Source: Escherichia coli
Lineage (GTDB): Bacteria; Pseudomonadota; Gammaproteobacteria; Enterobacterales; Enterobacteriaceae
Reading direction: 5' to 3' (one strand)
Assembly: GCF_048403405.1 (NCBI RefSeq)
Contig: NZ_CP183129.1
Length of the DNA stretch: 64,000 bases
In this document: in pieces, positions 8,811 through 40,441 of the stretch
Layout of the letters: each line of letters starts with the position of its first letter
How positions within the stretch are numbered: the first letter of the stretch is position 1
Translations under genes and position numbers: made by a program
The notes under the pieces: model-generated
Told to the model about the DNA's origin: nothing
The model's database searches: none
What the model saw: the letters and a program-made list of their open reading frames with translations, nothing else

Positions 8811-8883
8811 TAATTGTGCACAGAAAACCCCCAGCTAGGCTGGGGGTTCCGGAAAGCTTTCAGCTTTAAGCCAGTTATTAAAA

Positions 8884-8952
8884 CCCCTTTTGATTTGTTA
8901 AAACACCTTGCGGTCTGGCAACTGCAAGTGTCAAACAAGAAATCAAAAGGGG
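8884..8952 (+). promoter_or_regulatory. RBS-sequestering stem-loop of IS200 tnpA
   Basis: CCCCTTTTGATTT (8884-8896) is the exact reverse complement of AAATCAAAAGGGG (8940-8952); the right arm covers the AAGGGGG Shine-Dalgarno 7 nt before ATG 8959. Confidence 0.7.
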
Positions 8953-36304: not shown

Positions 36305-36611
36305 ACCAAAAACCTCTTTGCGTCACATTTTTACAACAATTATGGCAGAGAAGAATAATGCCATTGGAATGAAGAGAGTAACGAATGATTAAACTGGCTA
36401 AACCGAATGACGAAAAATTCTGGAAAACAGCACGCAATTTCGTGAAGTGATTATTTTCGTCCCTAAGGAAACCTCATAGGATGCCTGCGGGTGCCTGAGA
36501 CTTTCTGTTTTCAGGCTAACCGGGAATCAGAAAGACGAAGGCCCCGACCGATATTTCTATCAACTGTACTGCACCCATTTTGTTGGACGATGAAATGGAA
36601 TAGCCCCTAAT

Positions 36612-37133
36612 ATGTCAAAGCCAAAATACCCTTTTGAAAAGCGCCTTGAAGTCGTGAATCACTACTTCACAACTGATGATGGTTACAGGATCATCTCGGC
36701 ACGTTTTGGTGTCCCCCGAACCCAGGTCAGGACATGGGTTGCCCTCTATGAAAAACATGGAGAAAAAGGTTTAATTCCCAAACCTAAAGGCGTTAGTGCT
36801 GATCCAGAGTTGCGTATTAAGGTCGTGAAAGCTGTGATCGAGCAGCACATGTCCCTTAATCAGGCTGCTGCTCACTTTATGCTTGCTGGTAGTGGTTCTG
36901 TAGCCAGGTGGCTGAAGGTCTATGAAGAGCGCGGAGAAGCTGGTTTACGCGCGCTCAAGATTGGCACCAAAAGAAACATTGCAATATCAGTTGATCCAGA
37001 AAAAGCGGCATCAGCATTGGAGCTGTCAAAAGACCGACGCATTGAGGATCTTGAAAGGCAAGTTCGATTTCTTGAAACGCGGCTTATGTATCTAAAAAAG
37101 CTGAAAGCCTTAGCTCATCCCACGAAAAAGTAA
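36612..37133 (+). CDS. insJ: IS150 OrfA (InsJ), HTH DNA-binding protein
   Basis: 173 aa MSKPKYPFEKRLEVVNHYFTTDDGYRIISARFGVPRTQVRTWV..; slippery heptamer A_AAA_AAG at 37094-37100 near its 3' end. Confidence 0.9.
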   Translation: MSKPKYPFEKRLEVVNHYFTTDDGYRIISARFGVPRTQVRTWVALYEKHGEKGLIPKPKGVSADPELRIKVVKAVIEQHMSLNQAAAHFMLAGSGSVARWLKVYEERGEAGLRALKIGTKRNIAISVDPEKAASALELSKDRRIEDLERQVRFLETRLMYLKKLKALAHPTKK

Positions 37134-37981
37134 AAGTACTCAACGAGCTAAGGCAGTTTTATCCTCTTGATGAGCTTCTCAGGGCTGCGGAGATACCGCG
37201 CAGTACGTTTTATTACCATCTAAAGGCTCTCAGCAAGCCTGACAAGTATGCGGACGTTAAAAAGCGTATTGGTGAGATTTATCACGAGAATAGAGGCCGA
37301 TACGGATACCGTAGGGTAACGCTGTCTCTTCATCGAGAAGGGAAACAGATTAACCATAAAGCTGTTCAGCGCCTGATGGGAACCCTCTCACTTAAAGCAG
37401 CGATTAAGGTCAAGCGATACCGCTCTTACAGAGGAGAGGTAGGGCAAACCGCCCCTAATGTTCTCCAAAGAGATTTCAAGGCTACGCGGCCAAACGAGAA
37501 GTGGGTTACCGATGTTACTGAATTTGCAGTCAATGGGCGCAAGCTGTATTTGTCTCCAGTAATAGATCTCTTCAACAACGAAGTTATTTCTTACAGCCTT
37601 TCGGAAAGACCAGTGATGAACATGGTTGAGAATATGCTCGATCAGGCATTCAAAAAGCTTAATCCTCACGAGCATCCTGTTCTGCACTCTGACCAGGGAT
37701 GGCAGTATCGTATGAGAAGATATCAAAATATCCTTAAAGAACATGGTATTAAACAAAGCATGTCCAGAAAAGGCAATTGTCTGGATAATGCTGTGGTGGA
37801 GTGTTTCTTTGGAACCTTAAAGTCGGAGTGTTTTTATCTTGATGAGTTCAGTAATATAAGCGAACTGAAGGATGCTGTTACGGAATATATTGAATACTAC
37901 AACAGCAGAAGAATTAGCCTGAAATTAAAAGGTCTGACTCCAATTGAATATCGGAATCAGACCTATATGCCTCGTGTTTAA
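37130..37981 (+). CDS. insK: IS150 OrfB (InsK), DDE transposase; made as OrfAB fusion by -1 frameshift
   Basis: Open -1 frame from the slippery site to 37981 (..[60 protein letters not shown]..); the track shows only the part after the first Met (37376). Confidence 0.8.
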
Positions 37982-38023
37982 CTGTCCAACTTTTTGGGGT
38001 CAGTACACAACCGAGGCCAACGA

Positions 38024-38231
<208 letters not shown>

Positions 38232-38302
38232 GGGCAAGCGCGGGGATTTTCCCCGCGCATCTGACTAGCAGATTCATTTTCTCATGGCACCCCTTTTACA
38301 CT

Positions 38303-38476
38303 TCAGTTAGTGCATGTTTTTTTCGATGCACTAATAGAACCATCATTACAGACAAATTTGCCGCCTGCCGTACAGTGTGAGATCCCCCCTTTCGAACCAG
38401 AACAGGGTTTGCGCCCGGCATCGGCATAAAAGGAAACAAGCGTTCCCATAAACAAGATAAGTGCCAGTTTTTTCAT
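38303..38476 (-). CDS. ydcA: small secreted protein YdcA
   Basis: 57 aa MKKLALILFMGTLVSFYADAGRKPCSGSKGGISHCTAGGKFVCNDGSISASKKTCTN with signal peptide; below ORF-track cutoff. Confidence 0.8.
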   Translation of the reverse strand: MKKLALILFMGTLVSFYADAGRKPCSGSKGGISHCTAGGKFVCNDGSISASKKTCTN

Positions 38477-38647
38477 ATAACCTCCATGGTTTATCGAATC
38501 TTATGTTCGATTTGAACGTTATACGCTGGTTTATTTTGATACCGTTGATGAGATCAAAGATCGGGCGAATTGATTAAAGATAAGCCAGATGGACGTATGG
38601 ATAAGGATTATGGTTTTATTTGTCATACAAATAAATATAATAGGCGC

Positions 38648-38711
38648 TTCCGATGTAGACCCGTATTCTTCGCCTGTACCACGGGTCGGTTTTAGTACAG
38701 GCGTTTTCTTT
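38648..38711 (+). ncRNA. rydC: RydC small regulatory RNA (Hfq-dependent)
   Basis: CTTCCGATGTAGACCCGTATTCTTCGCCTGTACCACGGGTCGGTTTTAGTACAGGCGTTTTCTT recognised from memory as RydC; TATAAT at 38634-38639 upstream; ends in GCCTGTAC..GTACAGGC hairpin plus U-run. Confidence 0.8.
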
Positions 38712-38720
38712 AAATATCCT

Positions 38721-39251
38721 TCAGGAACGTTTACGCGGCATCATGCGTAGAAGTGTGTTGTCCTTCCAGAAATAGTGGTGTGCCAGTGCAGCCGCAGCGT
38801 GCAACCCGATGACAAAATATCCCAGATTCGCCAGCATTTCATGCCACGACTTTAAGCTATCAACCCGTTCGAAATTGGCCTCTGATGCATAAGGCATCGT
38901 CAAACCAAACGCAAACCACGGGTTGCCTCGGTTATACATCATCACCAAACCAATCACTGGCAGCGCAATAAACAGGAGATAAATCACCAAATGTCCCAAA
39001 TGCGCCAGTCCCGTCATCATCGGTTTTGGCTTAGGTATAATCGGCGGGGTTGGGTATTTCAGCCTTAACAAAAGACGAACGACCATCAGCACGAGAATTG
39101 ATATGCCACAGGAAACATGAATCATGTTGATGAGTGGCCGATCGCTACGTGGGAAGAAACCCCGAAACTCCATTGCGCAATACGCTGCGATAACCAGCAT
39201 AAAGACCAGCCAGTGAATGCTGATTTGTAACCTTGAGTATTTATTTCCCAT
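38721..39251 (-). CDS. cybB: cytochrome b561
   Basis: Track ORF 38721..39287 trimmed to ATG 39251 (MGNKYSRLQISIHWLVF..), 176 aa, four TM helices with conserved His. Confidence 0.9.
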   Translation of the reverse strand: MGNKYSRLQISIHWLVFMLVIAAYCAMEFRGFFPRSDRPLINMIHVSCGISILVLMVVRLLLRLKYPTPPIIPKPKPMMTGLAHLGHLVIYLLFIALPVIGLVMMYNRGNPWFAFGLTMPYASEANFERVDSLKSWHEMLANLGYFVIGLHAAAALAHHYFWKDNTLLRMMPRKRS

Positions 39252-39439: not shown

Positions 39440-40441
39440 ATGAGTAAAGTTGGTATTAATGGTTTTGGTCGTATCGGTCGACTGGTGTTGCGTCGATTAC
39501 TTGAAGTCAAAAGCAACATAGACATTGTTGCTATTAATGATCTCACTTCCCCAAAAATTCTCGCCTACCTGTTGAAACATGATTCAAACTACGGACCGTT
39601 CCCCTGGAGCGTTGATTTTACGGAAGATTCACTTATCGTTGATGGAAAAAGTATCGCGGTTTACGCCGAAAAAGAGGCTAAAAATATTCCGTGGAAAGCG
39701 AAAGGCGCAGAAATCATTGTCGAATGTACTGGCTTTTATACCTCCGCCGAGAAATCGCAGGCGCATCTTGATGCTGGTGCGAAGAAGGTGTTGATTTCCG
39801 CCCCTGCCGGTGAAATGAAAACCATCGTTTATAACGTCAATGACGACACACTGGATGGCAACGACACCATTGTTTCCGTGGCGTCATGCACCACTAATTG
39901 TCTTGCACCGATGGCCAAAGCCTTGCACGACAGTTTCGGAATAGAAGTCGGCACGATGACGACCATTCATGCCTATACCGGCACTCAGTCACTGGTGGAT
40001 GGCCCGCGTGGTAAAGATCTACGCGCTTCACGTGCAGCGGCAGAAAATATCATTCCCCACACTACGGGGGCGGCAAAAGCCATTGGTCTGGTGATCCCAG
40101 AACTGAGCGGCAAACTGAAAGGTCATGCACAACGCGTACCCGTGAAAACCGGTTCGGTGACTGAACTGGTGTCTATTCTTGGAAAAAAAGTGACTGCCGA
40201 AGAGGTGAACAACGCGCTTAAAAACGCGACAAACAATAACGAGTCATTTGGTTATACCGATGAAGAAATAGTCTCTTCCGATATCATTGGCAGCCATTTC
40301 GGTTCGGTGTTTGATGCCACGCAAACCGAAATTACCGCCGTGGGCGATTTACAACTGGTGAAAACGGTCGCCTGGTACGATAACGAATATGGCTTCGTCA
40401 CGCAGCTTATTCGCACCCTCGAAAAATTCGCTAAACTCTGA
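39440..40441 (+). CDS. gapC: glyceraldehyde-3-phosphate dehydrogenase GapC, full length
   Basis: 333 aa uninterrupted ORF with NAD-binding INGFGRIGR and active-site SCTTNCLAP; good Shine-Dalgarno (AGGAGAA) before ATG 39440. Confidence 0.9.

Follow-up and report, generated by a model that had tools for sequence, protein, structure and literature searches.

The segment at 38647-38710 on the plus strand is almost certainly an intact rydC gene, the same as the copy of E. coli K-12 and provided with its own sigma-70 promoter, a YieP operator, a terminator, a pseudoknot fold and a seed that pairs with cfa (Table 1; all positions refer to the window, i.e. the whole 64-kb stretch of E. coli DNA that was analyzed). 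We observed directly the identity to K-12, the synteny, the promoter and operator sequence, the covariation of the pseudoknot and the complementarity between the seed and its target. RydC is a characterized regulator of membrane lipid modification (through cfa) and in this DNA it is an ordinary, already described feature, whose relevance here lies mostly in correct annotation. What the analysis adds is that the published YieP motif is explicitly located, as a perfect copy, in the promoter of rydC, together with the observation that the operator allele of K-12 is an imperfect one, carried by a minority of E. coli genomes.

Identification of rydC

In order to identify structured RNAs, the entire 64-kb window was scanned with Rfam 15 at the gathering thresholds. 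The RydC family (RF00505) matched 38647-38710 (+) over the full model (positions 1-64 of 64), scoring 92.5 bits (E = 5.2e-17) where the gathering threshold is 48. Only three families, RydC being one of them, were at or above their gathering score across the 64 kb, which places this match far beyond chance. The sequence concerned, CUUCCGAUGUAGACCCGUAUUCUUCGCCUGUACCACGGGUCGGUUUUAGUACAGGCGUUUUCUU, is identical at 64 of 64 nucleotides to rydC (b4597) of K-12 MG1655, and the two genes also share the start site, the −10 box, the pseudoknot, the U-tail, the flanking genes ydcA and cybB, and the orientation. In K-12 the gene is annotated with a length of 65 nt (NC_000913.3, 1491442-1491506), which corresponds to 38647-38711 of the window. 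We found no evidence in the sequence against the identification of rydC.

A preliminary description of this DNA had proposed that a RydC gene, with a visible TATAAT box and a visible terminator, lies between ydcA and cybB at 38648-38711. The presence of the RNA gene and its location were borne out by the Rfam match and by the comparison with the curated K-12 gene, and both signals could be read in the sequence (Table 1). The proposed 3′ end is the one annotated in K-12, but the 5′ end had been set one base too late, since the Rfam match begins at 38647. The stop codon of cybB lies 10 nt past the 3′ end of RydC, and both the order ydcA-rydC-cybB and the convergence of the last two genes are those of K-12.

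Of 5426 complete E. coli genomes, 5415 carry the 126-nt region around rydC, each of them in a single copy. The only polymorphism within the RNA among the sampled E. coli was A13G, which turns the A13-U40 pair into G13-U40, thereby keeping the pairing of helix 1, and which also keeps the pairing with the corresponding U of cfa. Purifying selection on the RNA is strong. The PGAP-annotated records of the closest strains carry no feature between ydcA and cybB; automated routine annotation thus overlooks a real gene, which the Rfam scan restores.

Table 1. Position and basis of the features of the rydC locus and its surroundings
Feature	Position	Strand	Basis
sokB remnants	about 36531-36564, 38008-38034	-	Comparison with K-12
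hokB CDS	38082-38231	+	
ydcA, 57 aa, divergent from rydC, with the YieP operator in the intergenic region between the two	38303-38476	-	ORF; annotated in the identical strain and in K-12; listed YieP target
Predicted YieP operator, perfect 15-bp palindrome ATTTGTCATACAAAT, −29 to −15	38618-38632	.	Published motif; conservation in 12 loci
rydC sigma-70 −10 box TATAAT, without recognizable −35	38636-38641	+	Read in the sequence; TATANT in 12 of 12 aligned loci
rydC, 64-nt Hfq-dependent small RNA (65 nt in K-12, end at 38711)	38647-38710	+	RF00505 over full length; identity to K-12 b4597
Single-stranded 5′ seed, of which nt 3-13 (38649-38659) are complementary to the cfa leader	38647-38659	+	Complementarity; nt 1-10 invariant
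Pseudoknot helix 1, 5′ arm, nt 11-18, AGACCCGU	38657-38664	+	Pairs with 38681-38688; helix in the Rfam model
U23/U24, loop 1, Hfq lateral rim contact	38669-38670	+	Invariant in the alignment; contact and requirement for stability from PMC4337610
Helix 2, 5′ arm, nt 25-33, CGCCUGUAC, also terminator stem	38671-38679	+	Pairs with 38695-38703
Helix 1, 3′ arm, nt 35-42, ACGGGUCG, within the loop of helix 2	38681-38688	+	Pair counting
U46/U47, loop 3, second Hfq lateral rim contact	38692-38693	+	Aligned columns invariant; PMC4337610
Helix 2, 3′ arm, nt 49-57, GUACAGGCG	38695-38703	+	Folding, pair counting
3′ U-tail UUUUCUU, terminator U run and Hfq proximal-face site	38704-38710	+	UUUUCU invariant in homologues; PMC4337610
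cybB (cytochrome b561/superoxide oxidase), convergent with rydC	38721-39251	-	Annotation, gene order of K-12

Promoter and YieP operator

The TATAAT box of rydC ends 5 nt before the start nucleotide, C38647. A two-hexamer scan for sigma-70 promoters, which requires a −35 hexamer, reported no promoter at rydC. This null result does not speak against a promoter, as that of rydC has been published as having a perfect −10 box and no obvious −35 (PMC11340327).

The palindrome located immediately upstream of the box was found only once in the window. On the opposite strand it reads ATTTGTATGACAAAT and agrees at 15 of 15 positions with the motif atTTGTaTGAcaAAT, determined by ChIP-exo for the GntR/FadR-type regulator YieP, with both rydC and ydcA among the targets (PMC7642389). 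The possibility that the palindrome represents a new operator was therefore rejected. The same palindromic motif and repression by YieP are shared by the yohJK, ykgEFG and adiY promoters (PMC7642389); these promoters drive protein-coding operons, whereas the rydC operator occupies the spacer of a small RNA promoter and also faces the divergent ydcA. A genetic study has put the repression by YieP at 20-fold for the rydC of E. coli and at 7.5-fold for that of Salmonella, with no site being named (PMC11340327). Placing the operator in the rydC promoter ties the ChIP-exo motif of 2020 to this genetic result of 2024, and the position across the promoter spacer suggests that repression is exerted via occlusion of RNA polymerase.

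The operator match by itself is statistically weak within 64 kb (24 of 100 shuffles yielded a site with at most one mismatch), and the weight of the assignment is carried by the published motif and by conservation across species. We aligned 12 loci, originating from Escherichia, Citrobacter, Klebsiella indica and metagenomes, in which upstream conservation is confined to the palindrome and the −10 box. Upstream of about −31 the sequences are unrelated, and the palindrome keeps a distance of 3 bp from the −10 box in unrelated genomic contexts. The operator copies of Citrobacter are the exact reverse complement, with the half-sites retained and the centre flipped, and the copies of Citrobacter and K. 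indica have TATACT in place of TATAAT.

One metagenomic, Citrobacter-like rydC (L058, 191-260, minus strand) has lost the left half of the operator and carries a terminator-like hairpin, aaaacccgcctcggcgggttttt, instead, with the −10 box and the RNA kept. Judging from its upstream region, this copy may be naturally derepressed.

Operator polymorphism

The operator differs from that of K-12 at position 38622, where the G of the window completes the perfect palindrome and the A of K-12 (ATTTATCATACAAAT) introduces a mismatch into one half-site; a few further substitutions lie farther upstream. Allele-specific 35-nt searches of 5426 E. coli genomes revealed the perfect allele in at least 3994 (approx. 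74%) and the K-12 type in 1237 (approx. 23%). The K-12 operator allele is a minority variant in E. coli, and the perfect allele is also present in other genera.

The published E. coli data on the repression of rydC by YieP were obtained with K-12 (PMC11340327). We tentatively put forward, as a possibility with the odds still against it, that the G/A polymorphism tunes repression by YieP, in which case natural isolates and K-12 would differ in the basal level of RydC and in the threshold for cfa activation. If this were true, all of the published E. coli measurements of the YieP-rydC interaction would come from a minority allele with a weaker operator.

It might also be supposed that rydC, although intact, is effectively silent in this strain, i.e. 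that the perfect operator imposes tighter repression than in K-12 and that RydC contributes little under most conditions. The perfect palindrome, compared with the single mismatch of K-12, and the finding that even K-12 RydC is detectable only upon deletion of yieP (PMC11340327) are both consistent with such silencing. We nevertheless consider it improbable, because the perfect allele is the one held by the majority of E. coli genomes and common to other genera, which points to the normal regulated state rather than to a silencing mutation, and because purifying selection acts strongly on the RNA itself.

Pseudoknot, terminator and Hfq contacts

RydC is known to form an H-type pseudoknot, in which helix 1 (nt 11-18 with 35-42) is interleaved with a hairpin of nt 25-33 and 49-57, as seen in the crystal structure on Hfq (PMC4337610). 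The hairpin, our helix 2, is also the terminator: the 9-bp stem formed by CGCCUGUAC and GUACAGGCG is followed by UUUUCUU and constitutes the minimum-free-energy structure. Nested folding recovered this 3′ hairpin only (−14.4 kcal/mol, z = −0.48); the z value is uninformative, since nested folding cannot score a pseudoknot, and explicit pair counting was used instead. A terminator scan, restricted to loops of 3-8 nt, reported a short internal hairpin (38672-38686) and not the true terminator, because helix 2 encloses 15 nt.

Homologues for the pair counting were gathered with patterns that mostly fixed unpaired positions, namely the seed, the loop CUU and the U-tail; the patterns of the metagenome scan also fixed five bases of the 5′ arm of helix 2. 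The scan of the genome collection returned 43 chance matches without the helices and 4 true homologues; the E. coli representative was absent from these matches, despite the exact match of the pattern to the window and to K-12. Salmonella-type copies were probably missed owing to a 1-nt loop insertion, such as that present in L055 and L062. The true homologues comprise those of E. albertii, Escherichia sp., C. koseri and K. indica, several Citrobacter-like metagenomic copies, and two lineages with 1-nt loop insertions.

The resulting set for covariation is small (9 distinct sequences from Escherichia, Citrobacter, Klebsiella indica and two metagenomic lineages), and in it 98.0% of the cells of the pseudoknot pairing are standard pairs, compared with 25-47% when the partners are slid by 1-3 columns. 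In helix 1, 95.8% of the cells are paired and two pairs have changed on both sides; in helix 2, the corresponding values are 100% and four pairs. The covariation score given by these six compensatory changes was reached in 0 of 500 shuffles. Positions A11 and G42, unpaired in E. coli, are replaced by an A-U pair in 6 of the 9 sequences. Both helices of the pseudoknot are thus supported by the diverged homologues at the level of sequence.

The sequence elements through which Hfq is bound are all present. In the crystal structure the 3′ tail of RydC lies in the central channel of Hfq, which binds this tail and two UU steps, and mutation of G37 and G39 in helix 1 destabilizes RydC in vivo (PMC4337610). 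Nucleotides 1-10 of the seed, U23/U24, U46/U47 and the U-tail are invariant in the 9 homologues, where invariance of the seed, the loop CUU and the tail follows from their having been fixed by the search patterns; the U46/U47 columns are numbered T45/T46 in the alignment, whose loop is shifted by one.

RydC of other Enterobacteriaceae (Salmonella, Citrobacter koseri, Klebsiella; PMC11340327, PMC4337610) has the same seed, CUUCCGAUGU, the same two helices, UU steps and U-tail, and a YieP-type palindrome. The differences consist of the six compensated helix pairs, the 1-nt loop insertions in two lineages, and other flanking genes.

These comparisons bear on two further readings of the locus. Two plus-strand ORFs overlap rydC (38589-38750, 53 aa, starting with ATG, and 38570-38695, 41 aa, starting with TTG), which might indicate a small protein-coding gene rather than an RNA gene. 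However, L055 and L062 carry two separate 1-nt insertions within the element that would shift any frame, the variation at paired positions takes the form of compensatory double changes and not of changes at third codon positions, and homology ends at about −31, so that neither ORF start (−58 and −77) falls within the conserved part; moreover, the curated annotation of K-12 is that of an ncRNA. The insertions, the compensatory variation and the upstream loss of homology effectively refute a coding function.

It is just as far-fetched that the element merely serves as the terminator or 3′ UTR of the convergent cybB, a role brought to mind by the 10 nt separating the RydC 3′ end from the cybB stop codon and by the GC-rich helix 2, readable from either strand: read on the cybB strand, the hairpin precedes AAGAAUA instead of a U run, the −10 box, the operator and the invariant 5′ seed are kept in genomes whose sequence downstream of the element has no relation to that of E. 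coli, rydC adjoins frmR in C. koseri and lies between ecr and yebY in K. pneumoniae (PMC11340327), and the 64-nt RNA has been detected experimentally (PMC11340327, PMC4337610). A function restricted to cybB termination is excluded by the promoter and operator that rydC retains away from cybB and by the missing U-tract on the cybB strand.

Seed, cfa target and proposed mechanism

The RNA begins with the seed, CUUCCGAUGU (38647-38656), which is invariant in the 9 aligned homologues, all of them found with search patterns that required it. RydC nt 3-13 (UCCGAUGUAGA) and positions −109 to −99 of the K-12 cfa mRNA form 11 contiguous pairs, including one G-U, with an energy of −17.1 kcal/mol; a duplex as good as this was obtained with 5 of 500 shuffled cfa leaders. 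The cfa sequence used was that of K-12, the cfa, yieP and hfq genes of this strain lying outside the window. Of 5426 E. coli genomes, 5424 contain a 71-nt segment of the cfa leader, 4306 of them in identical form.

RydC activates cfa by pairing, which stabilizes the cfa mRNA and counteracts Rho-dependent termination (PMC11340327). Further confirmed direct targets are pheA and trpE, on which repression is modest (PMC11340327), and RydC has also been reported to lower the expression of csgD (PMC3985669).

Since the RNA is identical to that of K-12, the same mechanism is expected in this strain. According to this proposal, (i) rydC would be expressed from a sigma-70 promoter of its own, in which a perfect TATAAT stands without a −35 element, (ii) YieP bound at −29 to −15 would, as its position implies, block RNA polymerase and keep RydC low until the repressor is released, (iii) transcription would stop at helix 2 and the U-tail, (iv) the 64-nt RNA would adopt the H-type pseudoknot, leaving the 5′ end single-stranded, (v) Hfq, as described in the literature, would grip the RNA at the 3′ U-tail and the two UU steps, and (vi) seed nt 3-13 would pair with the long cfa leader at −109 to −99, an interaction that, also from the literature, would stabilize the mRNA, prevent Rho-dependent termination and raise the level of cyclopropane fatty acid synthase.

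IS150 insertion and other features of the region

The neighbourhood of rydC differs from that of K-12 by the presence of an IS150 within sokB and by an intact gapC. The preliminary description had mentioned a nearby IS150, and comparison with K-12 indeed revealed an insertion of exactly 1443 bp (36565-38007), for which the ends TGTACTG...CAGTACA and a CAAC duplication were read directly. In the annotation of the strain identical here, the insertion figures as a transposase of the IS150 family with a programmed frameshift. A repeat search with a seed of 9 did not recover the terminal inverted repeats of IS150, which are imperfect.

The insertion point corresponds to K-12 positions 1492142-1492145, inside sokB (1492119-1492175) and upstream of mokB/hokB. 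The element splits the sokB antisense RNA gene and parts the mokB/hokB frames from their upstream leader and promoter region; from this arrangement, the hokB/sokB type I toxin-antitoxin locus has probably been inactivated. IS150 is separated from rydC by 640 bp and leaves it untouched. The earlier statement on the conservation of non-coding content in the region despite IS150 thus holds for rydC, but not for the neighbouring sokB. Among 5426 complete E. coli genomes, up to 812 share the left junction of IS150, which indicates that the insertion is a common polymorphism.

Several other features of the region were recorded. An Rfam match to the sok family (36489-36641, plus strand) extends from the hok leader into the left end of IS150, where the alignment degrades. 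The 22-aa gene yncP (38209-38277, minus strand), annotated in K-12 and in the identical strain, lies between hokB and ydcA and overlaps the 3′ end of hokB in the antisense orientation. On the other side of rydC, gapC (39440-40441, plus strand) is an intact ORF of 333 aa, which is annotated as type I glyceraldehyde-3-phosphate dehydrogenase in the identical strain and is a pseudogene in K-12.

Farther away, a match to the Rfam family STnc490 (8826-8949, plus strand, 146 bits) was located at the end of an IS200C-family element adjoining pqqU (yncD). This position identifies it as an IS200-associated RNA and not a small RNA of the chromosomal core. The site of the IS200C-family insertion near pqqU is common to only 141 genomes at a coverage of at least 80%.
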